Positions 5,901 to 26,699 of a stretch of 64,000 nt of DNA are shown here, one piece after another (the first letter of the stretch is position 1; each line of letters opens with the position of its first letter). The notes below the pieces were generated by a model. It was not told where the DNA came from and made no database searches. It saw nothing but the letters and a program-made list of their open reading frames with translations. This DNA is from a phage. Made by a program: the position numbers and the translations under genes. The stretch is taken from the NCBI GenBank assembly GCA_012112355.1, contig GCA_012112355.1_3028.1; one strand, 5' to 3'.

Positions 5901-6827
5901 ACTCGTGCAACGATTATAGAATTCTCTGATGCTACCGGCTCTCATTTCTATTCTCAAAGAGATACGTCAAATAATGTGTTGTTCAACATTTCAGGTACGA
6001 TGCAATCAGTCAACGCTAACGTTCGTGGTGTTCTGAACGTTACAGGTGTCTCAACGTTTAATAGTTCAGTTACAGCCAATGGTGAATTCATTAGCAAGTC
6101 TGCAAATGCTTTCAGAGCAATAAACGGTGATTATGGATTCTTTATCAGGAATGATGGCGGCAGCACATATTTTATGCTTACTGCATCCGGTGATCAGACC
6201 GGTGGATTTAATGGATTACGTCCATTATCAATTAATAATCAATCCGGTCAGATTACAATTGGTGAAGGCTTAATCATTGCCAAAGGTGCTACTATAAATT
6301 CTGGCGGTTTGACTGTTAACTCGAGAATTCGTTCTCAGGGTACTAAAACATCTGATTTATATACCCGTGCGCCAACATCTGATACTGTAGGATTCTGGTC
6401 AATTGATATTAACGATTCAGCCACTTATAACCAGTTCCCAGGTTATTTTAAAATGGTTGAAAAAACTAATGAAGTGACTGGGCTTCCATACTTAGAACGT
6501 GGCGAAGAAGTTAAATCTCCTGGTACATTGACTCAGTTTGGTAATACACTTGATTCGCTTTACCAAGATTGGATTACTTATCCAACGACGCCAGAAGCGC
6601 GTACCACTCGCTGGACCCGTACATGGCAGAAAACTAAAAACTCTTGGTCAAGTTTTGTTCAGGTATTTGACGGAGGTAACCCTCCTCAACCATCTGATAT
6701 TGGCGCTTTACCATCTGATAATGCTACAATGGGGAATCTTACTATTCGTGATTTCTTACGAATTGGTAATGTTCGCATTATTCCTGACCCAGTGAATAAA
6801 ACTGTTAAATTTGAATGGGTTGAATAA
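2955..6827 (+). CDS. 34: long tail fibre proximal subunit gp34
   Basis: 1290 aa (T4 gp34 is 1289); MAEIKRKFRAEDGLDAGGDKIINVALADRTVGTDGVNVDYL N-terminus; repeated ETRRG-IAEIATQ motifs typical of gp34. Confidence 0.9.
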   Translation: MAEIKRKFRAEDGLDAGGDKIINVALADRTVGTDGVNVDYLIQENTVQQYDPTRGYLKDFVIIYDNRFWAAINDIPKPAGAFNSGRWRALRTDANWITVSSGSYQLKSGEAISVNTAAGNDITFTLPSTPIDGDTIVLQDIGGKPGVNQVLIVAPVQSIVNFRGEQVRSVLMTHPKSQLVLIFSNRLWQMYVADYSREAIVVTPANTYQAQSNDFIVRRFTSAAPINIKLPRFANHGDIINFVDLDKLNPLYHTIVTTYDETTSVQEVGTHSIEGRTSIDGFLMFDDNEKLWRLFDGDSKARLRVITTNSNIRPNEEVMVFGANNGTAQTIELQLPTDISVGDTVKISMNYMRKGQTVKIKAAGEDKIASSVQLLQFPKRSEYPPEAEWVTVQELVFNGETNYVPVLQLAYIEDSDGKYWVVQQNVPTVERVDSLNDSTRARLGVIALATQAQANVDLENSPQKELAITPETLANRTATETRRGIARIATTAQVNQNTTFSFADDLIITPKKLNERTATETRRGVAEIATQQETNTGTDDTTIITPKKLQARQGSESLSGIVTFVSTAGATPASSRELNGTNVYNKNTNNLVVSPKALDQYKATPTQQGAVILAVESEVIAGQSQQGWANAVVTPETLHKKTSTDGRIGLIEIATQSEVNTGTDYTRAVTPKTLNDRRATESLSGIAEIATQVEFDAGVDDTRISTPLKIKTRFNSTDRTSVVALSGLVESGTLWDHYTLNILEANETQRGTLRVATQVEAAAGTLDNVLITPKKLLGTKSTEAQEGVIKVATQSETVTGTSANTAVSPKNLKWIVQSEPTWAATTAIRGFVKTSSGSITFVGNDTVGSTQPLESYEKNSYAISPYELNRVLANYLPLKAKAVDSNLLDGLDSSQFIRRDIAQTVNGSLTLTQQTNLSAPLVSSSTATFGGSVSANSTLTISNTGTTSSRFTFEKGPASGSNADSALYVRVWGNKYSGGSDVTRATIIEFSDATGSHFYSQRDTSNNVLFNISGTMQSVNANVRGVLNVTGVSTFNSSVTANGEFISKSANAFRAINGDYGFFIRNDGGSTYFMLTASGDQTGGFNGLRPLSINNQSGQITIGEGLIIAKGATINSGGLTVNSRIRSQGTKTSDLYTRAPTSDTVGFWSIDINDSATYNQFPGYFKMVEKTNEVTGLPYLERGEEVKSPGTLTQFGNTLDSLYQDWITYPTTPEARTTRWTRTWQKTKNSWSSFVQVFDGGNPPQPSDIGALPSDNATMGNLTIRDFLRIGNVRIIPDPVNKTVKFEWVE

Positions 6828-8684: not shown

Positions 8685-11600
8685 ATGGCTACTTTAAAAC
8701 AAATACAATTTAAAAGAAGCAAAACCGCAGGTGCACGTCCTGCTGCTTCAGTATTAGCCGAAGGTGAATTGGCTATAAACTTAAAAGATAGAACAATTTT
8801 TACTAAAGATGATTCAGGAAATATCATCGATTTAAGCATTTCTACTGGTGGTAATATCAGTGGAAATATAACTCAAACTGGAGATTATTTACAGAACGGT
8901 ACATATAATCTCAATGGAAATCAGTTTGTTTATGCAGGAAAATATATTGAATTTTTACCTAAAACAGCTGGTAATGGTGCGTGGGCAAATCAACACCTAA
9001 ATAAAGCTCCTATCTTTACAGATTTAAGTTCAACTACTTCTGTTTCAGAATACCATCCGCTGATTAAACAACGCTATAAAGATGGAACTTTTTCTGCTGG
9101 TACATTAGTAAACGAAGGTAGTTTTAAATTCCATTATATTGATGAAACCGGGACTTCAAAATACTGGACTTTTAATCGAAACGGTAATTTCATCGTAGAT
9201 TCTGGTAGTATTGAAGTTCGTGCTGGTAATATTTCCGCTTCAGGCAATATTAACTCTGCTAATGGTATTATCACCGGTCCTGAAATTGTTACTAAAAATA
9301 TTAATTTCAGTACAAAAACATTTGTAGCTAATGCTAACATTGGATATGATTGGGTTTCTTTACCTACTTGGGTTTATAACCCACCGGCTGATGGTTCTGA
9401 TAATACTACTAACGGTTTAAACTATTTGCGTAAATTGCGTGCATCAAGTGCATCAAGTATTTTCCATGAAATTGCTGATTGTCGAAAAGGCAAGCCACAA
9501 GAAATTTCTTGGTGGACAGGTGTAGGCCCGGAATCTTTCCAATGGGCGTTTGATACCTCCGGTCGTATTACTGCAGGTAAATCTATTTCGGTAGGTCTTC
9601 CTGATAATGGTACAAATGGACGTTATCCTTTAGATTCTGCGATTTCTATAGGTATTGCAATTGGTGATAACGACACCGGTATTAAATGGGTCCGCGACGG
9701 TGTTATTGATTTCATGGCTAACGGTATTTCATCTGCTACTATTTTGAATAACGGTATTAACAGTACTAAAAAATTGATGGTCGGTTATAGTCGAGATTCC
9801 GGTTCTACTTGGGATTACCCAAATAACAACCAAGCAATGTTTACTGCGCGTACCGATGTTGATGGTAATAATAACGGCGATGGACAGACTCATATCGGTT
9901 ATAGCAGCAATGCCAAGATGTATCACTATTTCCGTGGTACAGGTCGTATGTCCGTTAATATGGGCGATGGACTTCTTGTTGAGCCTGGCATTTTGGATAT
10001 TAAAACTGGTTCAAATTCGTTAAATTTGCGTGCTGATGGTACCATAGCTTCTGTTCAAACGTTAAAACTTAATAATGGATTATATTTTAATGGTGATGGA
10101 ACTAATGCTTCTCTAGTTTTTAAAGCAGCTTCAGGTATTGATGGCACTAAGCAAATCATGTGGGAAGGCGGTACACGAGCAGGTCAGAATAAGAGTTATG
10201 TAACTGTTAAAGCATGGGGTAATTCATTTAACGCATCCGGCGATCGTAATCGTGAAACAGTTTTTGAAGTTAGTGACGGGCAAGGATATTATTTTTATTC
10301 ACAGCGTATGGCTCCAAGTGGCTCTGAAACTACTGGGCCTGTTGTAACCCAGTTCAATGGACAAGTTAATGCTAGAGGAAGTATTATTACTGACGGAAGT
10401 TTTAAAGTTAATGGATTAAGCACTTTAGTCGGTAATGTTACTATGTCTAACGGTTTGTTTGTCCAAGGTGGTTCTTCTATTACTGGACAAGTTAAAATTG
10501 GTGGAACAGCTGATGCATTAAGAATTTGGAATGCTGAATACGGGGCTATTTTCCGTCGTTCTGAAGCGGCATTGCATATTATCCCGACTCCTAAAGATGC
10601 TGGAGAATCAGGTGGAATAAGCAATCTCCGTCCATTAAGTATTAGTCTTAATAATGGTATGGTACAAATGCGCCATTCTGTCACGTTAGGCGATGATGGC
10701 GCTGGCGGTAATATGATTACTGTGGACAATGATAACAAACTTGTTGTTGTTACTAGTCATAGTCGTATTTCTCCTAATTACCGTATGCAGGTAGGACAAG
10801 CAGCTTATATTGATGCTGAATGTACTGACACCGTTCGCCCGGCCGGCGCAGGCTCTTTTGCTTCCCAAAATAATGAAAATGTCCGTGCTCCGTTCTATAT
10901 GAATATTAATAGAACTGATACTAGCACATATGTTCCTATTTTAAAACAGCGATATGTTCAAGGTAACAGCTGTTATTCGTTAGGCACTTTAATTAATGGT
11001 GGTAACTTTAGAGTTCATTATCATGAAGGTGGAGACGGAAGCTCAACAGGCGCAGTTATAAAAGATTTAGGCTGGGAATTTAACAAAAACGGTGATTTTT
11101 ACTCTCCTGGTAAATTAGGTGCTGGTGCGGTTCGTATTGGTACTGACGGTAATATCACGGGCGGTTCATTACCTAACTTTGCTAACTTGAACTTGACATT
11201 AGACCGTAAAGTCAATACCCGAATGGTTTCTTATTCAGGTACTGGCGGTTGGTATAAATTAGCCACTGTAACAATGCCACAATCCACTTCAACCGTCACA
11301 TTCGAAATTGCTGGTGGTAATGGATATAATGTCAACATCCCACACCAATGCGTTACTTCGAAAATCGTTTTAAGAACTTCGAACAATAACCCGAAAGGTA
11401 TTAACGCTGTTGTTTGGTCGATGGATACCGATCAGGGTATTAAGAATGTTGCAACGGTTAATACATCAGGCGATGTTTATGACATCTATGTAAACGTTGG
11501 TACTTATGCTCAGGCGTTAGCAGTTTCTTATTATGCTACTCCTAATGCTACCATTAATCAGATATTTGCAACGGACCAACCGGGTGCAACAGAAACTGCG

Positions 11601-12656
11601 GTTGAACTTCCTGAGACGGCTATTCAAGGACAGGTTGCTAGTGTTCTGAACAACTTGGCTCCTACCCCTAACGGTGTGAAGCGTTATGAAGCCGATTCTG
11701 AAATAGCTATTAATAGCCAAACCGGTATTCGTATCAGAAGCAATGCCGATAAAACTGGTTCTGTGGCTACAATGTTACGAAATGACGGTGGCAGTTTTTA
11801 TATTCTGTTTACAGATAAAAATGCCACCGATGGCGCAGCAACTGTTAATGGTGATTGGAATAGTAAACGTCCTTTCGCAATTAACTTAACAACCGGCGAA
11901 GTGATGATGAATAATGGCATAGCTGTTCGCAGCGCTGCTTTATTCTATAATAGCATAAACGTCAAAGATAATGGTTCTATTAACTTTGATAAATCAGGTG
12001 CTAACCCGAGAAATATGAGAATATTTCATGCTGGCGATGCTTCTCGCGGTAACCGTATTGAAATTGCCGATGAAACTAACTATATTGCTTACTTTGAAAA
12101 AACTCCAGGTGGAGCTAACCGCTTTGTAGTAAATAATGCTACTGTAGCTGGTATTAATCAAACAAATTCATTTGGTATTAATATCAATAACGCACTTGGT
12201 GGAAATAGTATAGCATTTGGTGATAGCGATACTGGTATTAAGCAAAATGGCGATGGATTATTAGACATATATGCGAACAGCGTACAAGTATTCCGTTTCC
12301 AAAACGGTGATTTGTACTCATATAAAAATATAAATGCTCCAAACGTTTATATTCGTTCTGATATTCGCTTAAAATCTAATTTCAAACCTATCGAAAATGC
12401 ACTTGATAAAGTTGAAAAACTCAATGGTGTCATTTATGATAAAGCTGAATACATCGGTGGAGAGGCAATTGAAACTGAAGCGGGTATTGTAGCTCAAACG
12501 TTACAAGACGTTTTACCAGAAGCCGTCCGTGAAACAGAAGACAGCAAGGGTAATAAAATACTCACTGTTTCTTCTCAAGCCCAGATTGCTCTTCTGGTTG
12601 AAGCTGTGAAAACGCTTTCTTCTCGTGTAAAAGAACTTGAATCTAAACTTATGTAA
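8685..12656 (+). CDS. 37: long tail fibre distal subunit gp37, T2/T6-like long form with a C-terminal intramolecular-chaperone-like domain
   Basis: 1323 aa; [46 protein letters not shown] N-terminus as in gp37; internal repeats; C-terminal tail contains SDIRLK...VKELESKLM. Confidence 0.9.
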   Translation: [1323 protein letters not shown]

Positions 12657-12657
12657 A

Positions 12658-12675
12658 AGAGGGCTTCGGCCCTCT
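12658..12675 (+). other. RNA stem-loop with UUCG tetraloop (agagggc-ttcg-gccctct) between genes 37 and 38
   Basis: Perfect inverted repeat in the 30-nt 37-38 intergenic spacer; no T-run, so more likely a stabilising or processing hairpin than a strong terminator. Confidence 0.45.
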
Positions 12676-12686
12676 AAGGATTTTTA

Positions 12687-13472
12687 ATGGCAATTGTAGG
12701 TGTTCCTGGCTGGATTGGTGAATCTGCCGTGAATGAAACTGGACAACGTTGGATGGATGCTGCAATGAGAGCAGTCCGTGTTTCAGTTCCCGGTTGGATG
12801 AGCTCAATGGCCGGACAATCTAAAGAAGTATATTATAGCATTGGTGCTAGTAATTCTTATAATAAAGATACATTAATAAACTGGATAAAAGCCCAAGGCA
12901 GTACTCCTGTTGTTATTACTATTACAGGAAATATTGTTTCTCGATCTACTGGTGTTCCATGCTTAGATTTTCCTAGCTCATTAACTAATGCATACGTGAC
13001 ACTTAATATCAATTCAGGAGTGCATGTTTGGGGCCGTGGCGGGAATGGCGGAAATAACTCTGCCGGTGGAGCAGGAGGAACTGCAATAAATAATGGAATT
13101 GGAACTAGATTGCGTATTAACAACAATGGTGTTATCGCAGGAGGCGGTGGCGGCGGTGGAGGCGGATATTATTCTCCTTTTTCACAAATGAAATTGACTT
13201 TTGGCGGTGGCGGCGGTCGTCCATTTGGTGCTGCTGGCGGGTCTGCTAATATGGAACAGGGCGCTACTGCTGGTACTATTTCTGCACCTGGTAAAGGGTC
13301 TGTCAATGGTATCTATAATGGCGGGAATGGCGGTGATGCTGGTGCCGCAGGTGGTAAATGTAATATTCGTGGGCAAGGATCAGAATATAACGGCGGCGCG
13401 GCCGGTAAAGCTGTTACTGGTAATGCTCCAACTTGGACTAAGGTTGGTACAATATATGGTTCAAGAGTATAA
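12687..13472 (+). CDS. 38: receptor-recognising tail fibre adhesin gp38 (T2-type, glycine-rich)
   Basis: 261 aa, MAIVGVPGWIGESAVNETGQRWMDAAM...; poly-Gly blocks (GGGGGGGGGYY, FGGGGGRPFGAAGG) separating variable segments, as in T2/K3/Ox2 gp38. Confidence 0.85.
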   Translation: MAIVGVPGWIGESAVNETGQRWMDAAMRAVRVSVPGWMSSMAGQSKEVYYSIGASNSYNKDTLINWIKAQGSTPVVITITGNIVSRSTGVPCLDFPSSLTNAYVTLNINSGVHVWGRGGNGGNNSAGGAGGTAINNGIGTRLRINNNGVIAGGGGGGGGGYYSPFSQMKLTFGGGGGRPFGAAGGSANMEQGATAGTISAPGKGSVNGIYNGGNGGDAGAAGGKCNIRGQGSEYNGGAAGKAVTGNAPTWTKVGTIYGSRV

Positions 13473-15917: not shown

Positions 15918-16243
15918 TTAAACCATTCCTTAATACGTTGCCAAATAGATTTTTGTGCTTGTTTATTTACACCAATCGAACGAATAACCGGTTGTGACTG
16001 CTGATATTCTTTATAATCTTCTTTATAGATTTCGTAAGCTGCATCAACAAATGAACTGATCGCTGCCATGTAGTTTTTACGAAGGCCAAATGGCGCGTCA
16101 TTATTTTCACGAATAACCGTATATTGGCCTGCTTTAATCTTTACGATAGTTCCAAGATAAGCTCCATGATACCAGATGTCCCAACCCTCTTGGGTAGGTT
16201 CTGCACAACGACGAAGTTCATTAACAATTTCTAACTTGTTCAT
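15914..16243 (-). CDS. hypothetical early protein
   Basis: 109-aa ORF directly downstream of motA in the same orientation. Confidence 0.5.
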
Positions 16244-16253
16244 TATTTATTCC

Positions 16254-16889
16254 TCACAGTTCAGATGCTACAGTGATTACTGCTTCAATGTTTTCTACCG
16301 AGCGTTTAATGTCAAGATACACATTACCGTTTTTAGCGATTTTACATGACATTCCGATGTCAGTAAATTTCTGAATATGATGTTCCATCATTTTGTATCC
16401 AAAAATTCGCATGTTTCCATTGTTGTTAATTTCAAAATTACGAATTCCGTGAGTGCGTTTTTCTAAAATGGCAAGATAATTACTACGATAAGTTTCAACC
16501 TTTTTAAGAACAAATCCATTTTCATCTAAAAGTTTTAACATGAGGTCTTTATCTTCTTCCATATCGGAAGTAATCTCGCGAGCTTTACGAGTTGCTCGTT
16601 TTTTCAGTAGTTCCGGAGCATTTTCCTGTGCATATAAAGTTGCTGCATTTGAAATAATATCCTGAGCTTCACCAGTAATGATTAATCCATCACCAGATTT
16701 CTCCACCAGGCCTTTTTTAATCAATACCCCAATATTACTATTAACTACTGCGTTACCTAAATCTGGATGCACCTCACGAACTTCTGCAGCTGTAATGAAA
16801 TCTTTCTTAGCAATAGTAATTAAAATCGCAGCAGTTTTTTCATTCAGAACATCGTTAGAAGCTTTGATGATGTAAGTTACTTTAGACAT
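16254..16889 (-). CDS. motA: middle-promoter transcription activator MotA
   Basis: 211 aa, MSKVTYIIKASNDVLNEKTAAILITIAKKDFITAAEVREVHPDLGNAV...; T4 MotA size and sequence. Confidence 0.9.
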   Translation of the reverse strand: MSKVTYIIKASNDVLNEKTAAILITIAKKDFITAAEVREVHPDLGNAVVNSNIGVLIKKGLVEKSGDGLIITGEAQDIISNAATLYAQENAPELLKKRATRKAREITSDMEEDKDLMLKLLDENGFVLKKVETYRSNYLAILEKRTHGIRNFEINNNGNMRIFGYKMMEHHIQKFTDIGMSCKIAKNGNVYLDIKRSVENIEAVITVASEL

Positions 16890-16930
16890 TTTCTAATCTC
16901 CGTAATTCTGTATCAGTAGTTGATAGTTGT

Positions 16931-16960
16931 ATAGTACCACAGTATGCTTTGGTTGTAAAC
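16931..16960 (-). promoter_or_regulatory. T4-type early (sigma70) promoter upstream of motA: -35 GTTTAC, 18-nt spacer, TGG-TACTAT -10
   Basis: Minus-strand sense reads GTTTAC-aaccaaagcatactgtgg-TACTAT; member of a repeated promoter family in this window. Confidence 0.5.
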
Positions 16961-16990
16961 CGTTTTATGAAAAAATTTTTGAAATAAAAA

Positions 16991-17012
16991 AGGGAGAGCC
17001 GAGGCTCTCCCT
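16991..17012 (-). terminator. GC-rich hairpin (agggagagcc gaggctctccct) downstream of the small ORF after gene 52
   Basis: Perfect inverted repeat between the motA.1-like ORF and the motA promoter. Confidence 0.45.
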
Positions 17013-17016
17013 AAAA

Positions 17017-17166
17017 TTACTGCATGACTGTGATAACTGTCATGATAACACGTTGAATGCCGAACGCAAGAAGACCTCCTGCTACGGCTGGAACAACACC
17101 TACCCCCGCTAGTAAAATGCCGCCAGATACTAATGCAGCGCTTGTAATACCAATGAATGGACTCAT
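17017..17166 (-). CDS. small hydrophobic membrane protein (~49 aa), motA.1-like position
   Basis: Manual translation MSPFIGITSAALVSGGILLAGVGVVPAVAGGLLAFGIQRVIMTVITVMQ; ATG overlaps the gene 52 stop. Below track cutoff. Confidence 0.45.
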   Translation of the reverse strand: MSPFIGITSAALVSGGILLAGVGVVPAVAGGLLAFGIQRVIMTVITVMQ

Positions 17167-18491
17167 TTGATTTCCTCTAAATCTTTAGTGTATTCTGTAA
17201 CTACATCAGTAGTTTTCCAATATTCGTTTTCTTCTTTTTTAGCTTTAGCTTCTTCAGCAAGTTTCTTTGCTTCATCAGAAGTCATATGAAAAATATTCAT
17301 TCCAACTAGTTTATCAACATAAGAAGAATACATCTCAATTTTAGAAAGTTCTTCGGTCAGTTCTTTACGAGTTTTACCCTGTACAACAATTTCACCTGAA
17401 ATTACTTTCTTAATGAAATGCGCCTTGGCAAAGGCTAAACGAAATGCTGATTCAGTTTCTTTGATTTTGTTATCAATTCGTTTTTGGACATAAGTTTTAC
17501 GAACTTCAACGAAGTCTTTGATTAAATCAACTACGTTATCGTAAACTTGTAGCTTTCCTTTCTCATTAATAACGGTAATATTTTGGGAACGACGCTCAAT
17601 CAACCCGAAGTCTTTCATAATTTTTGCATGGCGTTCTTCTTCATTATCGCTCAAAGAATATTCTTTACGGAATTTAACTTTAAAGCCAAAGCCATGCTCA
17701 CCACAAGCATCATCCCACGTAATGAAGCCTTTATCTTCAAGTGGGTCTAAGATTTTACTCACATAAGTTTCACGATCATACTTATACGGAATCTCAGTGA
17801 TATGCATTTGAGTTCGTGAAGTAAACTTGTATGTTCCACGAATTTCATATTGCCCATCAATCTCAACGACTTCACCACGAAATTCTGGGAATTCTACCTT
17901 CGGTTTAGTTACTTTCTTTCCTTGAAGAGCTTGCAGTACAGCTTTCTTGACAGAAGAAACACTATGAGGAAGAATGTAAGTTGCATAACCAGTTGCAATA
18001 CCGGAAACACCATTAAGAAGAACAGTAGGAATAATAGGCAAATAGAAAGCAGGCGGAATGTGTTCTTTATCTTGATGTACTGGAGCATATTCAGTATCTT
18101 TATATACGTTATAGAAATTTTTACTTACACGAGCAAAAATATAACGACTAGCTGCTGCCTTTTGGACAGTACGAGAACCGAAGTTTCCTTGACCATCTAA
18201 CAAAGGAAAGTTATTATTCCAAGTATTAGCCATCAAAGCCCCTGCATCTTGTGCAGAGTTTTCACCATGGTGATATCCAAGGTCCGCTACACCACCTGCA
18301 ATAGAAGCAAGTTTGTGAAACTTATCTTTATTTCCTCGTGCCAAATCAAGAGCTCGAGCAATAACAAATCGTTGAACTGGCTTAAATCCATCAATCATAT
18401 TTGGAATAGCACGATTTTCAACCGTGTACATAGCATAAGCCAATGCTTCATTATCAATGATACTTTTTAAATCGCGATTATTCAGTTGCAT
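17163..18491 (-). CDS. 52: DNA topoisomerase II medium subunit gp52 (GyrA-like)
   Basis: 442 aa as T4 gp52; MQLNNRDLKSIIDNEALAYAMYTVENRAIPNMIDGFKPVQRFV. Confidence 0.9.
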   Translation of the reverse strand: MQLNNRDLKSIIDNEALAYAMYTVENRAIPNMIDGFKPVQRFVIARALDLARGNKDKFHKLASIAGGVADLGYHHGENSAQDAGALMANTWNNNFPLLDGQGNFGSRTVQKAAASRYIFARVSKNFYNVYKDTEYAPVHQDKEHIPPAFYLPIIPTVLLNGVSGIATGYATYILPHSVSSVKKAVLQALQGKKVTKPKVEFPEFRGEVVEIDGQYEIRGTYKFTSRTQMHITEIPYKYDRETYVSKILDPLEDKGFITWDDACGEHGFGFKVKFRKEYSLSDNEEERHAKIMKDFGLIERRSQNITVINEKGKLQVYDNVVDLIKDFVEVRKTYVQKRIDNKIKETESAFRLAFAKAHFIKKVISGEIVVQGKTRKELTEELSKIEMYSSYVDKLVGMNIFHMTSDEAKKLAEEAKAKKEENEYWKTTDVVTEYTKDLEEIK

Positions 18492-18495
18492 AAAT

Positions 18496-18636
18496 TTACC
18501 ATACTAGTGAATGTAGTGCCATAATAACATCAGAAATGAAAAGCACGACTTGAATCAATCCGAACATTACTCCATAATATAGTGCTACTAATAAAGTAGC
18601 AAGGGCTAATGAATAGCCCAAGATTTTCTTAATCAT
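18496..18636 (-). CDS. small membrane protein (~46 aa), 52.1-like position
   Basis: Manual translation MIKKILGYSLALATLLVALYYGVMFGLIQVVLFISDVIMALHSLVW; below track cutoff. Confidence 0.4.
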   Translation of the reverse strand: MIKKILGYSLALATLLVALYYGVMFGLIQVVLFISDVIMALHSLVW

Positions 18637-18787
18637 TAGTAGATAACAACACAAATGTTAAATATGCACACATACCCTGAGCTAAAGCTTGCGAAAACAC
18701 ACTGCTAGCATCGATACAGATAGTTAAAACACATGCTACTATCCAACAAATAAATGAAATAACTCCTAATAATTTTGCAATATTCAT
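18629..18787 (-). CDS. ac: acriflavine-resistance membrane protein Ac
   Basis: Manual translation MNIAKLLGVISFICWIVACVLTICIDASSVFSQALAQGMCAYLTFVLLSTND (~52 aa); size and position of T4 ac immediately after stp. Confidence 0.6.
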   Translation of the reverse strand: MNIAKLLGVISFICWIVACVLTICIDASSVFSQALAQGMCAYLTFVLLSTND

Positions 18788-18794
18788 ATTTTCC

Positions 18795-18875
18795 TCACTG
18801 GCGTCCGAAGACGCCTTTAGTTTTAAGATTATTACGATAGAACTGCATCACGTGTTCGTTGTGGAAATTACTCAT
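18795..18875 (-). CDS. stp: Stp peptide (26 aa), known modulator of host EcoprrI restriction and the PrrC anticodon nuclease
   Basis: Manual translation [26 protein letters not shown], identical to the T4 Stp peptide as I recall it; start overlaps the ndd stop (TAATG). Confidence 0.8.
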
Positions 18876-19333
18876 TAATATGCCTGCAAAACGAATTTAA
18901 AGTTATCAGCCAACATACGGTTCATTTCTTCAAGTGTTTGATACTCGGAATGATGATTACGGGTAAACGCCAAAGCTAACTGACCTTTACCAAATCCTGT
19001 CGTCAGAGGTTTCATCTTAGAAGCAGGCAGATAAAATACTGTGTATACCATATTGTTATTTGCAATAGTACGTGCAAGCTGAGACCGACGTTGACGAATA
19101 TGACTTAGAACTGCACTGAATCCTTGCTTAGAACGCTGATTACCTACATAAAATCGTGCAGACACACATGGATTACTAAATGGACGACCATCTAATTTAC
19201 TTACTAAAAAGTAAAATCCAGGTTTAGACAAAATGTCTTTGTGTGGAGTTCCCAAAAACCACTCACCGCCCTTGATTGTACCAATAACAGTAGCGCCTGC
19301 ATCATTTAGATCAGTAACAGCCATATATTTCAT
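18875..19333 (-). CDS. ndd: nucleoid disruption protein Ndd
   Basis: Track ORF 18875..19381; from the internal Met ([42 protein letters not shown]...) ~152 aa, matching T4 Ndd. Confidence 0.85.
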
Positions 19334-19393
19334 TTTAATTTCCTCTAAATTATTTTCTACTCCAAGGCCGCATGAATACATACGGCCGATAAA

Positions 19394-19609
19394 TTAATCG
19401 TCGCAGTCGACGCTCAATTCCCAGAATTCTTCTACGGTATAAGTTTCAGTATCATTTTCAATACAGAAACGTTCATTACTATTATTTGCTAAAGTAGCAT
19501 TAACTGTCGGTTTCTCGCTAGTGCTCTTAAGAGGTGAAATACGAATTAACTGATCACCATTATCTAAACAGAAAATTTCACCAACTTTTACATCTTTAAA
19601 ACTTTTCAT
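19394..19609 (-). CDS. hypothetical protein (ndd.1-like position)
   Basis: 71-aa acidic ORF directly upstream of ndd on the same strand. Confidence 0.45.
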   Translation of the reverse strand: MKSFKDVKVGEIFCLDNGDQLIRISPLKSTSEKPTVNATLANNSNERFCIENDTETYTVEEFWELSVDCDD

Positions 19610-19724
19610 AATTCACCTCAAGGAGTATAAAATCCAAATGCAGTTGTTGACCATCCCATCCAATATGGGAAATTTGCACCAATGTAAAACATGAGAATAT
19701 AAAACCAACCACTCAGCAAATTCA

Positions 19725-19922
19725 TCATTTTACACCATTCCAAATTGTTTCAACCACAGATTTTAAACCATTTTGATGAATATCCATTCCGACTACCGCC
19801 ATCAAATAGATTCCAACTACAACTGAACCTAAGGCAAAAATCAGCATGAAAATGAATAAAGCCGGAAAAATATTATCGAAAAACCATTCAATAAATGTAA
19901 AAGCACTACGTTTACGCTTCAT
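19725..19922 (-). CDS. small membrane protein
   Basis: Track ORF 19725..19943; likely start at the internal ATG (MKRKRSAFTFIEWFFDNIFPALFIFMLIFALGSVVVGIYLMAVVGM...) preceded by ttcctc (GAGGAA on minus). Confidence 0.45.
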   Translation of the reverse strand: MKRKRSAFTFIEWFFDNIFPALFIFMLIFALGSVVVGIYLMAVVGMDIHQNGLKSVVETIWNGVK

Positions 19923-19929
19923 ATTTTCC

Positions 19930-20043
19930 TCACATAAATCCAAAATAAGCGTTTAATACATCAATCATTAAAACGATTGGGAATATACTCAAAACTATTA
20001 GTATTATAACTACATTCCATATAGCTTTAATAATCTTTTTCAT
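19930..20043 (-). CDS. small membrane peptide (~37 aa)
   Basis: Track ORF 19930..20178 is probably over-extended: an early-promoter-like element lies inside it. The internal-ATG product is MKKIIKAIWNVVIILIVLSIFPIVLMIDVLNAYFGFM with an upstream GGAGG. Confidence 0.4.
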   Translation of the reverse strand: MKKIIKAIWNVVIILIVLSIFPIVLMIDVLNAYFGFM

Positions 20044-20071
20044 TTTCTGTTCCTCCGTAGTTGATAGGGTA

Positions 20072-20102
20072 ATAGTACCACGGAAGAACAGTCTTGTAAA
20101 CA
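20072..20102 (-). promoter_or_regulatory. T4-type early promoter (GTTTAC, 18-nt spacer, TGG-TACTAT)
   Basis: Minus-strand sense GTTTAC-aagactgttcttccgtgg-TACTAT; same family as the motA promoter. Confidence 0.45.
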
Positions 20103-20286
20103 ACTTTTTTAAAAATATTCGTAATAAATGTGAATACCAACTACTACCGCTGAAACCTGTGCAACCCACCACGCACAAGCAATAAGTACAGAATTCAAAA
20201 TTTTCATAATAACCTCATCACAAAAGTAAATGTTAAACAAATTACTGGAATACTAATTAACCAAACAAAACACCACCATAATGAAC

Positions 20287-20562
20287 TCATAGCTCAATCT
20301 CAGCGATTTTCATTTCATTACTATTAATAGCCTCTTTAAGACTATCTGAAAGAATTACATTCCAGTGGTCATTCATATGACCATTAACTAAGCGTGTAAT
20401 TTCTTCAGGAGTTGAAAAATAAGGCTGATCAGACTCCCAATGCGATAATCCTAAGCGAGTATAAATCATGCCTTCATCATCGCTCGAATATTCAACTGAC
20501 ACAAACTCATCAGTTATTTTATGTTTAGCGTAATAAAATTTAAATTTCATTTTATTCTCCAA
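20287..20562 (-). CDS. hypothetical protein
   Basis: 91-aa ORF upstream of denB with its own early-type promoter. Confidence 0.5.
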   Translation of the reverse strand: MENKMKFKFYYAKHKITDEFVSVEYSSDDEGMIYTRLGLSHWESDQPYFSTPEEITRLVNGHMNDHWNVILSDSLKEAINSNEMKIAEIEL

Positions 20563-20587
20563 ATCCGTATCAGTAGTTGATAGTTGT

Positions 20588-20617
20588 ATAGTACCACGGT
20601 CCTTGTGGTATGTAAAC
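20588..20617 (-). promoter_or_regulatory. T4-type early promoter
   Basis: GTTTAC-ataccacaaggaccgtgg-TACTAT on the minus strand; flanks are near-identical to the 16931 and 48154 copies. Confidence 0.45.
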
Positions 20618-20634
20618 CGTTTTGTGAAAAAATT

Positions 20635-21192
20635 TTAAATGGAAAGATACCATCCGTTGTAGTTGCTTTTTCTTACAACCTTACGAAGGTCTTCTCTGTC
20701 ACCGATGAACTTCGGAGTGTACTGGATGACACCTGGATGAATTTCTTTAGTGTTGAATATAATTATACAGTCAGCGACTTGATGATTTAGAATGGGCCCT
20801 AAATTTATTCCAGAACCATATGGATACTCTCCGCTGCATCCCGTTGTTACCGAAATCCAACGCGAGTCAGTTTGATGTGTTTTGACTTCTACACGAAGCC
20901 CGCAATATTTTGGATGCGCTAAAACATCCCATGCATACGTGTACGGATCATCGACATTTTCTTGGCCTTTATTGACATATCCGCTTAGCCAATCTGCCAC
21001 AAAAAACTCTGCGTACACAGCGATACGGCATCTTTCGATAACTTCTGCTTTATCCTGGTTCGGGTTTTGTTTTAAAGAGTATCTTGCTGTATCAGCAATT
21101 TTGACCTTCATTTCACTAGTCAAGTCACTGTTCGATAGGGTAAATGTCGGAATCTGAAATAGTCTCTGTAAACCCGGATTCGTTTTCTGCAT
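20635..21192 (-). CDS. denB: endonuclease IV DenB (dC-specific ssDNA endonuclease)
   Basis: 185 aa, same size as T4 DenB, and located next to rIIB as in T4. Confidence 0.75.
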   Translation of the reverse strand: MQKTNPGLQRLFQIPTFTLSNSDLTSEMKVKIADTARYSLKQNPNQDKAEVIERCRIAVYAEFFVADWLSGYVNKGQENVDDPYTYAWDVLAHPKYCGLRVEVKTHQTDSRWISVTTGCSGEYPYGSGINLGPILNHQVADCIIIFNTKEIHPGVIQYTPKFIGDREDLRKVVRKSNYNGWYLSI

Positions 21193-21255
21193 TTAAACTT
21201 TCCTTTATGTCGGAATCATAATTTCTCTTAAAACAAAAGGGCCGAAGCCCTTATT

Positions 21256-21450
21256 TTATTTGAATTGTGCGATTCTTTTCTCTAGACACTCAGCATAAGA
21301 TTTCATTGAGATGAACTGCGAAAGTAGCAGTTCTTGCTCAACTGCGTTAACTGTTAGAAACTTTGCGCTTTCTAAAAATTTGCTCAGTGCATTAATTTTG
21401 AGCATTAATTGATCGTATTCTTCTTTTACTCGTGCTTGATAACCTAACAT
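21256..21450 (-). CDS. hypothetical small protein
   Basis: 64-aa ORF between rIIB and denB, flanked by two GCCGAAGC hairpins. Confidence 0.45.
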   Translation of the reverse strand: MLGYQARVKEEYDQLMLKINALSKFLESAKFLTVNAVEQELLLSQFISMKSYAECLEKRIAQFK

Positions 21451-24849: not shown

Positions 24850-24879
24850 ATTATACCACATCCTTGTGGTAAAGTAAAC
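24850..24879 (-). promoter_or_regulatory. T4-type early promoter (GTTTAC, 18 nt, TGG-TATAAT) inside the 3' end of gene 39
   Basis: Minus-strand sense GTTTAC-tttaccacaaggatgtgg-TATAAT. Confidence 0.45.
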
Positions 24880-26699
24880 TACTGGCTCATCCATTCTTTA
24901 CGAAGGTCAGCATTATCTCCCATGAGCATTTCAAAAAGCTCTTTCCAGTTCTCAGGAAGTTTAACAACATCATATACCGGATTTTGAATCATCTCACGAT
25001 ATTCAGATTTTTCCAAAGAGCCAAGTCCCTTAATATAACGGATGCTATGTTTAGGTAGAGCATCTTTAGCACTCTCATATTCAGCGACTGTATAAAACCA
25101 TTCTTGTTTTTTACCGACCTGAGCGATGATTACAGGAGTTTTGACAAAGCGAATTCTTCCTTGCTCAAACAATTCTGGCCAATTACTAAAAAATCCGAGC
25201 AGAGAAGGATAAATGCTTCCTAGACCATCATGGTCAGCATCAGTCATAATAGCGATATTATGATAATTCAAGTTTTCAGCTTTTTCACCGAGAACTAATC
25301 CAGTGATTGCGCAAATATCAAATAGTTCTTTGTTTTTAAGCATATCTGCATAAGACATACCCCAACTGTTGAGAACTTTACCACGTAATGGATAACCACC
25401 ATGAAGTTCTTTATCACGAACATCAATAAGATATCCGATAGCAGAATCACCCTCAGTCAAGAAAAGAGTAGTGTCAGCATCTTTACCGCAAAGATTCGCT
25501 TTGATATGTTTATGAACCTTAGCTTTAGAAGCCTTTTTAGCTGCTTTAGTTTCTGCTGCTTTTTCTGCCGCCAATTTACGAGCCAAAGCAGCTTCGATAA
25601 TCGGCATTAGAATTGCTTCATTATTTAGAATAGCGCGTGAAATCTTTTTAGCATCAAGTTGAATATGACTACGGATTTCACCAAATGGAGAAGTCAAACG
25701 CTCTTTAGTTTGAGAATCAAATCGCATGTTTTTCATATCACGAACAAACATAACGATAGTCAAACATTCTTTGACACGTGCTTTAGTTACATCAATTTTG
25801 AACTTACGTTTGATTTGTGGAATAAGGTCTTCACAAATATCATCCATAACACAGTCAATGTGATGGCCACCATTCTTAGTGTGAATGTTATTGACGTACG
25901 TCAACTGACGAAAACCATCCGGTGAACGACCAACCGCAATAGAACAATTTTCTTGTTCTTGAACAATAGCATGTTCATCATACTGTCGTGCATATTTCTT
26001 AAAATTGCCCTGAACCTTTTTACCATTAAAGGTAAATTGAATATCAGGATAAACAACAGCAAGTGTTTGGAGACGATCTAGTGTAATGTCAAGATAAACT
26101 TGGGACAGCTCATTAGTTTCAAATGACATAAAATCAGGAATGAAAGTAACACGGGTTCCTTTCCATTTTCCAGGAATATCTTCCCATGATTTATTTTCCA
26201 TGCCGTTTGAACAACGAACTACAATATTATTTTGACCATCACCAGTTTCACCGACAAACATCACAGAAAAAATGTTTGTCAAACTAGAACCAACACCATT
26301 CATACCGCCAGTGACGCGTTCTTTATCATCACCGAAGTTACCACCCGCTTTTGGAATAGTCCAAGCAGCAACTGGACCAGGAATTTCTTCACCGGTAGGT
26401 GTTTTAACCATCGCTTGTGGAATACCGCGACCGTTATCTTCAACTGTTACCTGATTATTTTTAATGGTAACATTAATTTTATTCGCGAATTTAAACTTAG
26501 TACGAATACCTTCATCGACTGAGTTATCGATAATTTCATCAATAAGCTTAACAAGACCAGGTACATACTGAACACTTTCCCATTTACCAAACAGAAAGCG
26601 CTCATGCATTTCATTAGCAGAAGAGCCAATGTACATGCCACTACGCTTTTTGATATGTTCAATATCGCTCAGAATTTTAATTTCATTCTTAATCATCAC
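24879..26699 (-). CDS. 39: DNA topoisomerase II large subunit (GyrB-like), single uninterrupted ORF equivalent to T4 genes 39 plus 60
   Basis: 606 aa; MMIKNEIKILSDIEHIKKRSGMYIGSS N-terminus. T4 splits this into gp39 and gp60 with a translational bypass; here it is one continuous ORF. Confidence 0.85.
   Translation of the reverse strand: MMIKNEIKILSDIEHIKKRSGMYIGSSANEMHERFLFGKWESVQYVPGLVKLIDEIIDNSVDEGIRTKFKFANKINVTIKNNQVTVEDNGRGIPQAMVKTPTGEEIPGPVAAWTIPKAGGNFGDDKERVTGGMNGVGSSLTNIFSVMFVGETGDGQNNIVVRCSNGMENKSWEDIPGKWKGTRVTFIPDFMSFETNELSQVYLDITLDRLQTLAVVYPDIQFTFNGKKVQGNFKKYARQYDEHAIVQEQENCSIAVGRSPDGFRQLTYVNNIHTKNGGHHIDCVMDDICEDLIPQIKRKFKIDVTKARVKECLTIVMFVRDMKNMRFDSQTKERLTSPFGEIRSHIQLDAKKISRAILNNEAILMPIIEAALARKLAAEKAAETKAAKKASKAKVHKHIKANLCGKDADTTLFLTEGDSAIGYLIDVRDKELHGGYPLRGKVLNSWGMSYADMLKNKELFDICAITGLVLGEKAENLNYHNIAIMTDADHDGLGSIYPSLLGFFSNWPELFEQGRIRFVKTPVIIAQVGKKQEWFYTVAEYESAKDALPKHSIRYIKGLGSLEKSEYREMIQNPVYDVVKLPENWKELFEMLMGDNADLRKEWMSQ

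Follow-up and report, generated by a model that had tools for sequence, protein, structure and literature searches.

Gene content of the ndd-stp-ac-52.1-52-motA.1 early block in a T4-like phage, and Stp-like peptides in enterobacterial siphoviruses

Introduction

The anti-restriction peptide Stp of bacteriophage T4 is required for activation of the latent PrrC tRNA-Lys anticodon nuclease in prr+ E. coli, and by itself it suffices for this. Its target is the PrrC-associated type IC enzyme EcoprrI, whose restriction activity is inhibited; EcoR124I is also inhibited by Stp and type IA enzymes are not (PMC3014915; PMC12707154). Loss-of-function mutations cluster at residues 4-14 and activity resides in the N-terminal 18 residues, the C-terminal 8 residues being largely dispensable, and the cleaved tRNA is repaired by T4 polynucleotide kinase and RNA ligase 1 (PMC3014915; PMC12707154). 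The corresponding Pfam entry, PF08133, is described as the 'Anticodon nuclease activator family'. Stp follows the functional logic of other phage anti-restriction proteins, such as T7 Ocr and ArdA/ArdB, in that type I restriction is neutralised by a phage product made early, the comparison being one of mode of action and not of homology. Ocr and ArdA, both longer than 100 aa, mimic DNA. In contrast, Stp has 26 aa, is basic and is specific for type IC enzymes (PMC12707154).

The neighbouring T4 gene ac is known from a drug phenotype: the wild-type gene leads to acriflavine sensitivity and ac mutants are resistant (bioRxiv 10.1101/2025.06.30.662393; PMC13250531). According to a model in a 2025 preprint, which is based on structure prediction and phenotypes, Ac enters the membrane and blocks AcrAB-TolC efflux (bioRxiv 10.1101/2025.06.30.662393).

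Here we analyze the corresponding region in a phage sequence (GenBank assembly GCA_012112355.1, contig GCA_012112355.1_3028.1), of which a stretch of 64,000 nucleotides, referred to as the window, was available. With a probability of about 0.95, the cluster represents the normal ndd-stp-ac-52.1-52-motA.1 block of early genes in a Tequatrovirus closely related to T4. We also report Stp-like peptides in phages outside the T4-like group.

Gene content and organization of the locus

Gene identities, conservation, selection and gene packing were observed directly in this analysis. The large ORFs of the window track the T4 map (long tail-fibre genes, t, motA, 52, rIIB, rIIA and the topoisomerase large subunit). 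Over the 2.8 kb surrounding the cluster, identity to Escherichia phage vB_EcoM_KAW1E185 is 99.3%, and RB3, RB14 and other Tequatrovirus genomes reach about 97%; at least 80% of this region is covered in 488 phage records. All cluster genes are located on the minus strand (Table 1), where the small ORFs flank two large genes, gene 52 and ndd. The RB14 and T4 records contain the series motA.1, 52, 52.1, ac, stp and ndd with matching order and sizes. Ndd itself shows 97% identity to its T4 counterpart and a full-length match to PF06591 (310.5 bits vs a cutoff of 25, E 2.5e-93). Five further tiny genes are found directly upstream of the cluster.

An earlier, sequence-only reading had described a dense cluster of tiny genes at 18496-19333 that the ORF track had missed. 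This span does hold 52.1, ac, stp and ndd, but the 49-aa motA.1 lies outside it, beyond gene 52. None of the four small genes is listed at the 60-aa cutoff, but the T4 and RB14 records do annotate them. As all four are already present in those records, the cluster holds no novelty; nothing in the window is new, and the genes have been part of the T4 reference annotation for decades.

Table 1. Features of the early-gene block and its surroundings (positions in the window)
Feature	Position	Strand	Remarks
motA.1	17017-17166	-	49 aa, Gly/Ala/Val-rich hydrophobic; 47/49 to T4 NP_049874
gene 52, DNA topoisomerase II medium subunit	17163-18491	-	442 aa; 99.5% to T4 gp52
52.1, predicted membrane peptide (DUF7396)	18496-18636	-	46 aa from ATG at 18636
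ac, acridine-sensitivity determinant, membrane protein	18629-18787	-	52 aa
stp, soluble basic peptide	18795-18875	-	26 aa; 26/26 to T4 NP_049878
ndd, nucleoid disruption protein	18875-19333	-	152 aa; ATG preceded by GAGGAAATTAAA
C(UUCG)G tetraloop hairpin GGCGUC-UUCG-GACGCC	18800-18815	-	last stp codons (GVFGR), ~15 nt upstream of ac start
Early-type promoter-like site (TTTACA, 17 nt, TACTAT, upstream TG)	20072-20100	-	candidate nearest upstream of cluster
Sister promoter-like copies	20588-20616 and 16931-16959	-	T4 early consensus match
Terminator-like hairpin AGGGAGAGCC-TCGG-CTCTCCCT then TTTTTTATTT	16991-17012	-	5 nt past motA.1 stop

Two alternative gene starts were considered and dropped. 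The first was a 168-aa extended ndd ORF starting at 19381; the 152-aa start has a GAGG Shine-Dalgarno sequence and fits T4 and RB14. The second was a 52-aa form of 52.1 with a TTG start at 18654, given up in favor of the 46-aa ATG form, which matches both its Pfam and its PHROG profile over their whole length.

The genes are packed very tightly. The stop codon of ndd and the ATG of stp share bases (TAATG), the 52.1 ATG lies within the last codons of ac (8-nt overlap), the 52.1 stop is situated 4 nt ahead of the gene 52 ATG, and gene 52 in turn has a stop that overlaps the start of motA.1 (ATGA). A GAGGAAA Shine-Dalgarno sequence precedes ndd, ac and motA.1, and that of ac, GAGGAAAAT, overlaps the stp stop codon; upstream of the starts of stp and 52.1, no recognisable Shine-Dalgarno sequence was detected. 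The sequence-only reading had named a lack of ribosome-binding sites as a point that would refute the small ORFs; they are not refuted on this count, as each small gene has either a GAGG Shine-Dalgarno sequence (ac and motA.1) or a start that overlaps or abuts the upstream stop (stp and 52.1). Translationally coupled early genes of T4 typically show such a layout. The start/stop overlaps within this tight early operon suggest translational coupling, and, due to the tight packing, several of the small genes appear to be dependent on the upstream gene for their translation.

With regard to transcription, the site at 20072-20100 is the candidate promoter that would drive the cluster, judging from its match to the early consensus. 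A search of minus-strand positions 16000-21400 for a MotA-box middle promoter (TGCTTNA, spacer, TAnnnT) found none, so the promoter assignment amounts to a consensus match. The hairpin behind motA.1, a strong terminator-like element which has a 9-pair stem with 6 GC pairs and is followed by a T-run, probably marks where the early transcription unit running from ndd to motA.1 ends, and would act as its terminator. Minus-strand transcription would then begin at early promoters of the T4 type, near 20616 and 20100, and proceed to the putative terminator at 17012-16991. In T4, the transcripts of motA.1, 52.1, ac and stp have been classed as early (PMC9697503 Table S2, Class_Tx). Screening the entire window against Rfam with gathering thresholds gave no match, and ARAGORN found zero tRNA genes in the window.

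Ac, gp52.1 and MotA.1 as predicted membrane peptides

The sequence-only reading had noted an Ac-like membrane protein of about 52 aa and two hydrophobic peptides of about 46 and 49 aa beside gene 52, all of which could be identified. The first is Ac, identical over 52/52 residues to the 52-aa RB14 Ac (ACP30905), which also has an equal position and an equal 8-nt overlap with 52.1; compared to the 51-aa T4 Ac (NP_049877), with which it shares 49 invariant columns, it has one Thr insertion near the C-terminus (STND vs SND). The other two correspond to gp52.1 and MotA.1 by alignment to T4. The window gp52.1 is identical to that of RB14 (46/46) and matches T4 gp52.1 (NP_049876) at 45/46 residues, differing by the conservative Thr14 (Ala14 in T4), and it occupies an equal position immediately upstream of gene 52. 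T4 MotA.1 differs by two conservative substitutions, the window peptide having G16 for S and V22 for L, and shares the ATGA overlap with the gene 52 stop and a like terminator downstream; as expected for this family, the window gene is located between gene 52 and motA.

Hydropathy supports all three as membrane peptides, with GRAVY values of 1.4-1.7 (MotA.1, 1.62). For Ac, the GRAVY of 1.42 and a best 19-residue window of 2.74 point to a small hydrophobic membrane protein by hydropathy calculation only. By analogy with T4, Ac would be a small inner-membrane protein that causes infected cells to accumulate acridines, by the preprint model via a block of AcrAB-TolC efflux. 52.1 and motA.1 are conserved predicted membrane peptides. 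In Gaprivervirus-like phages, gp52.1 is 87-89% identical to the window peptide, compared with only 69% for their gp52 and 60% for their Ndd. Recent transfer does not explain this conservation, because synonymous sites have diverged (dS 0.67-0.85); an important undiscovered role for 52.1 would be a weaker reading of the same observation.

It has to be considered whether Ac, 52.1 and motA.1 jointly form a membrane-remodelling set (acting, for example, on permeability, efflux or T4-stimulated phospholipid synthesis) instead of having independent roles, a proposal which we regard as unlikely. All three are predicted to be single- or double-pass hydrophobic peptides and are co-transcribed, with overlaps between ac and 52.1 and between 52 and motA.1. 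A viable T4 deletion mutant, sa-delta-9, in which 52.1, ac, stp, ndd, ndd.1-6 and denB are missing, no longer stimulates phosphatidylglycerol synthesis (PMC6071114), and Ac alone makes E. coli acriflavine-sensitive (bioRxiv 10.1101/2025.06.30.662393). However, the three genes differ in distribution: tblastn against 50,697 phage records detected 52.1 in 813 records from several T4-like genera, whereas ac (463 records) and motA.1 (422 records) were restricted to Tequatrovirus. Moreover, Gaprivervirus has a different small hydrophobic ORF in the ac position, T2 records have a truncated ac beside an intact 52.1, and no experiment ties 52.1 or motA.1 to a phenotype.

Stp and the hairpin in its 3' codons

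The peptide that the sequence-only reading had named as T4 Stp proved to be exactly that, as translation of the stp interval gives 26/26 identity to both T4 and RB14. The resemblance to T4 extends to the position between ndd and ac, the TAATG overlap and the C(UUCG)G hairpin formed by the final codons. Within codons 1-18, the T4 and window genes differ by two synonymous nucleotides that leave the protein no different, and the N-terminal 18 residues are kept as in T4. With a GRAVY of -1.03, Stp is a soluble basic peptide by hydropathy. Its description by the earlier reader as a trigger and modulator of a host restriction and anticodon-nuclease system agrees with the published role as type IC restriction inhibitor and PrrC trigger (PMC3014915; PMC12707154).

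We infer the biochemistry of all products of the cluster from T4 studies via sequence identity. Because the peptide is identical, the window Stp is expected to act like T4 Stp: it would block DNA restriction by binding to the type IC restriction-modification complex of the host (EcoprrI, EcoR124I), and in prr+ hosts this block would release the latent PrrC nuclease, leading to cleavage of tRNA-Lys. The cut tRNA-Lys would then be mended by the phage polynucleotide kinase and RNA ligase 1, by analogy with T4; the genes for these two enzymes, pnk and rnlA, are expected outside the window.

A different reading would see the stp locus chiefly as a structural element of the RNA or DNA, either a terminator or a stabilising hairpin, with the ORF being secondary. 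The GC-rich hairpin with its 6-bp stem has a T-rich tail on the plus strand and scores terminator-like there, and KAW1E185, G28 and G50 annotate a 'terminator' at this place and no stp gene; the terminator-like look on the plus strand explains such features in some genome records. RNA folding of the stp region gave an overall z-score of -1.14, with the UUCG hairpin as the sole robust element, present in both the MFE and centroid folds, and its sequence is conserved over several T4-like genera: T4 and RB14 have it, as do T4-likes at a greater distance, the loop being UUUG in Gaprivervirus. Against this reading, the hairpin spans just the last 6 of the 26 codons and is not followed by a T-run on the transcribed minus strand, whereas the N-terminal 18 codons are conserved as protein, with changes being synonymous, and T4 genetics has mapped Stp activity to the peptide (PMC3014915). 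The hairpin is also absent in T2, whose Stp has a different C-terminus, and in Kagunavirus, which retains the residues KGVFG with other codons. A primarily structural role for the locus is therefore very improbable. A dual role is possible, in which the Stp peptide is encoded together with a C(UUCG)G hairpin that stabilises the mRNA or modulates translation ahead of ac.

Evidence that the small ORFs are genes

A six-frame ORF list with a 20-aa minimum was compiled in place of the default track with its cutoff of 60 aa, and this rerun recovered all four small minus-strand ORFs. Short ORFs are abundant in the AT-rich DNA of this region (70 ORFs of at least 20 aa within 5 kb), so an ORF by itself is little proof of a gene. 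Four independent lines of evidence, namely families, selection, distribution and packing, show that the small ORFs are real genes. First, all four peptides match PHROG families over their full length, at E-values between 1e-21 and 1e-30: Stp matches phrog_6763 (E 4.4e-21) and PF08133 Nuclease_act (75.3 bits vs a cutoff of 25, profile positions 1-26/26), gp52.1 matches PF24129/DUF7396 (81.9 bits vs a cutoff of 27, positions 1-46/46) and phrog_3595, Ac matches phrog_2501 (E 3.7e-25), and MotA.1, for which the Pfam scan gave no family match, is covered by phrog_3487 (E 1.9e-30, positions 1-49/49).

Second, the dN/dS ratios of the small genes are about 0.05-0.26 overall, indicating purifying selection. 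The values are 0.07-0.11 for 52.1 (vs relatives with dS 0.4-0.85), 0.05-0.13 for motA.1 and 0.13-0.26, from few differences, for ac. In codons 1-18 of stp, zero non-synonymous changes were observed vs T4, T2 and Kagunavirus RP180, and in the comparison with RP180 6 of about 7.5 synonymous sites had changed. Third, tblastn of the small peptides gave between 422 and 818 positive phage records each (818 for stp), and the fourth line is the packing described above.

Expression of the small genes is supported by RNA data, to which genetics is added in the case of stp and ac, whereas 52.1 and motA.1 as genes are backed by conservation only. MotA.1, gp52.1, Ac and Stp are all 'NA', that is, undetected, in the T4 time-course proteome (PMC9697503 Table S2, Class_P), which is expected since the products are tiny or hydrophobic. 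The idea that these frames are open merely by chance, in intergenic DNA that is AT-rich, to which the abundance of short ORFs, the proteome result and the missing Shine-Dalgarno sequences of stp and 52.1 lend some color, is effectively refuted by the selection and family evidence, with the lowest dN/dS values occurring at substantial synonymous divergence for 52.1 and stp, and is further contradicted by ORFs of the same length in hundreds of phage records and by T4 mutant phenotypes for stp and ac (PMC3014915; bioRxiv 10.1101/2025.06.30.662393).

Annotation of the small genes in public records

To describe how stp is annotated, a sample of 27 T4-like matches was used, 23 of which were annotated records. 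The gene was named in only one of the 23, that of T2; three had an unnamed hypothetical protein only, and the remaining 19 had just the overlapping ndd, a 'terminator' or nothing at this place. Thus, stp is left out of most public T4-like annotations among the sampled records. The minimum gene length in Prodigal is 90 nt. With its 81 nt, stp falls below this limit, which would explain the missed calls.

The other small genes are affected by labels of a different kind. MotA.1 is often called a 'transcriptional regulator' in public records, which is implausible for a 49-aa hydrophobic peptide. The label 'acridine resistance protein' is sometimes attached to 52.1; for Ac this label is misleading, as it is the wild-type allele that gives sensitivity. 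In one record Ac is called a 'sugar ABC transporter permease'.

In this region, at least four real genes go unlisted under a 60-aa ORF cutoff, a finding whose value is in quality control only. The hidden genes include stp, a classic anti-restriction effector and abortive-infection trigger.

Stp-like peptides outside T4-like phages

Besides T4-like phages, tblastn with Stp also matched siphoviruses of 42-52 kb. The siphovirus loci contain intact ORFs of 25-27 aa starting at the aligned Met. Examples are 25-aa peptides in RP180 and Ro145clw (both Kagunavirus), a 26-aa peptide in PHB07 (Tlsvirus), and the peptides MSSHHNEHVMQLYRHNLKSHGRLGK in PH1062 (Nouzillyvirus), MSNWHNEHIMQWYRRRIKAITSSYEV in LPSTLL (Segzyvirus) and MINWHNEHIMQWYRRRIKAIIKSYEVQ in seszw (Skatevirus); a further example of a siphovirus variant is MSNWHNEHIMQWYRRRIKAITNSYEV. 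No gene annotation for the Stp-like ORF was present in any of the six siphovirus loci read. The peptides have the common core M-x-x-[FWH]-HNEH-[VI]-M-Q-[FWL]-[YH]-R-x-x-[LI]-K, and the family alignment has nine invariant residues, all of which are located in the N-terminal 18, the part that is functional according to T4 genetics.

A scan of IMG/VR yielded 59 loci, with an intact ORF in 56 of them (55 of 25-27 aa and one fused 74-aa ORF). Pooled pN/pS was 0.08 for the Tlsvirus-type clade and 0.12 for the Skatevirus-type clade, indicating purifying selection here as well; in both clades codons 1-18 are more constrained than codons 19-25, and AAGGAG or GAGG motifs occur upstream. For distant clades, tblastn E-values were weak in the large database (0.04-0.5), and the siphovirus case is therefore built on consistent ORF architecture and selection. 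Among bacterial and archaeal genomes, sampled at one per species, 37 pattern matches were obtained, none of which was confirmed at a tblastn E-value of 1e-3 or below, a threshold that is conservative for a 26-aa query. T4 Stp also weakly matches phrog_28068, a family without assigned function (E 5.5e-5); judging from this match, phrog_28068 may be where PHROGs holds the siphovirus form of Stp.

One Tlsvirus-type contig encodes, 470 nt downstream of the Stp-like ORF, a protein whose HAD phosphatase domain is of the PNKP type (PF25109, E 8e-22), and in the PHB07 record a 3'-phosphatase/5'-polynucleotide kinase is annotated 1.2 kb downstream. The adjoining PNKP-type gene hints at a linked tRNA-repair countermeasure.

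On this basis, Stp might be a horizontally spread, almost never annotated gene of 25-27 aa that is also present in unrelated enterobacterial siphoviruses (Kagunavirus, Tlsvirus, Nouzillyvirus, Skatevirus and Segzyvirus) and is not a T-even speciality, a view to which we give roughly even odds. Our coverage of the literature, including anti-defence catalogues and work on Drexlerviridae, was incomplete; no report of a spread of Stp homologues was found there, and we do not claim that it is unreported.

Implications

If the spread of Stp is true, peptide inhibition of type IC restriction would be common among coliphages and Salmonella phages, and triggering of PrrC-like nucleases would possibly be common too. 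If the siphovirus Stp-like peptides do inhibit type IC restriction, they would add to the determinants of host range known for many phages that are therapeutic candidates.

Conservation of small early genes

Among the small proteins encoded around gene 52, gp52.1 was strikingly well conserved in four related phage loci (L007 and L027-L029), with 87-89% identity versus 69% for the adjacent gp52 and 60% for Ndd. Synonymous sites of 52.1 have diverged in these comparisons (dN/dS of about 0.08), and gp52.1 is more constrained than the neighboring topoisomerase subunit. The T2 record retains an intact 52.1 next to an interrupted ac (see table), of which only a 13-aa remnant is annotated. Several public records designate 52.1 as an acridine resistance protein and many call motA.1 a transcriptional regulator, while Ac appears as a sugar ABC transporter permease in the IME537 record and a naphthalene 1,2-dioxygenase feature lies somewhere in the small-gene region of the Shinka record.

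A C(UUCG)G tetraloop hairpin encoded within stp is located immediately 5' of the ac ribosome-binding site. This hairpin is conserved in several T4-like genera but has been lost in T2, and it is absent from Kagunavirus although the amino acids that it encodes are retained there. In some GenBank records a terminator is annotated at this position and stp itself is omitted.

Organization of neighboring regions

The second dense run of tiny genes comprises equivalents of ndd.2 (35 aa), ndd.2a (65 aa), ndd.4 (37 aa), ndd.5 (32 aa), and ndd.6 (28 aa). Each of these five matched a PHROG family end to end, and a 60-aa cutoff would miss every one except ndd.2a. This layout differs from that of T4 and resembles that of RB14, with the long form of ndd.2a and no ndd.3. 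A T4-type early promoter and leader (GTTTACA...TGGTACTATAC AACTATCAACTAC...) was found in three near-repeat copies.

The topoisomerase II large subunit matched phrog_543 over its full length and phrog_7229 at residues 453-606. Because this single ORF spans both the gp39 and gp60 parts, the phage lacks the gene 39/60 split of T4, and presumably the gene 60 translational bypass is missing as well. The gp38-type adhesin that follows the long distal tail fiber gene matched phrog_2056 (host specificity), an arrangement that we take to resemble the T2 type rather than the shorter gp38 of T4.

Features identified in the window and in related phage loci
Feature	Location	Strand	Remarks
Distal tail fiber (1323 aa), then gp38-type adhesin (261 aa)	window 8685-13472	+	
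Promoter-leader copy	window 16905-16960	-	upstream of motA
gp52.1 (DUF7396, 46 aa)	window 18496-18636	-	compared with L007, L027-L029
C(UUCG)G hairpin	window 18800-18815	-	last codons of stp
Second tiny-gene run	window 19618-20290	-	upstream of ndd.1
Promoter-leader copy	window 20045-20100	-	upstream of ndd.4
Promoter-leader copy	window 20565-20635	-	upstream of 87-aa ORF 20287-20562
Topoisomerase II large subunit (606 aa)	window 24879-26699	-	gp39 and gp60 parts in one ORF
Interrupted ac	L006 1599-1754		T2 (NC_054931); stop codon after ~10 codons
Stp-like ORFs	L003, L004, L005 (each 2501-2578)		
Stp-like ORFs	L008 1501-1581; L009 1501-1581; L010 1501-1584		
Stp-like ORFs	L019-L068		IMG/VR
PNKP-type gene	L045 6550-7083		PF25109, E 8e-22; Stp-like ORF at 6001-6081
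PNKP-type gene	L008 2766-3054		pnk annotation in PHB07

Stp-like ORFs in siphoviruses

Intact Stp-like ORFs of 25-27 aa, which keep the N-terminal core HNEH[VI]MQ..R..[LI]K, were detected in siphoviruses unrelated to T4, namely members of Kagunavirus, Nouzillyvirus, Tlsvirus, Segzyvirus, and Skatevirus. They are preceded by Shine-Dalgarno motifs and are under purifying selection (pN/pS 0.08-0.12). None of the six siphovirus loci read had the ORF annotated as a gene. No Stp-like ORF was confirmed in bacterial reference genomes.

In Tlsvirus-type phages, a PNKP-type polynucleotide phosphatase/kinase gene lies 0.5-1.2 kb downstream of the Stp-like ORF, and this proximity suggests a linked tRNA-repair countermeasure similar to T4 Pnk.
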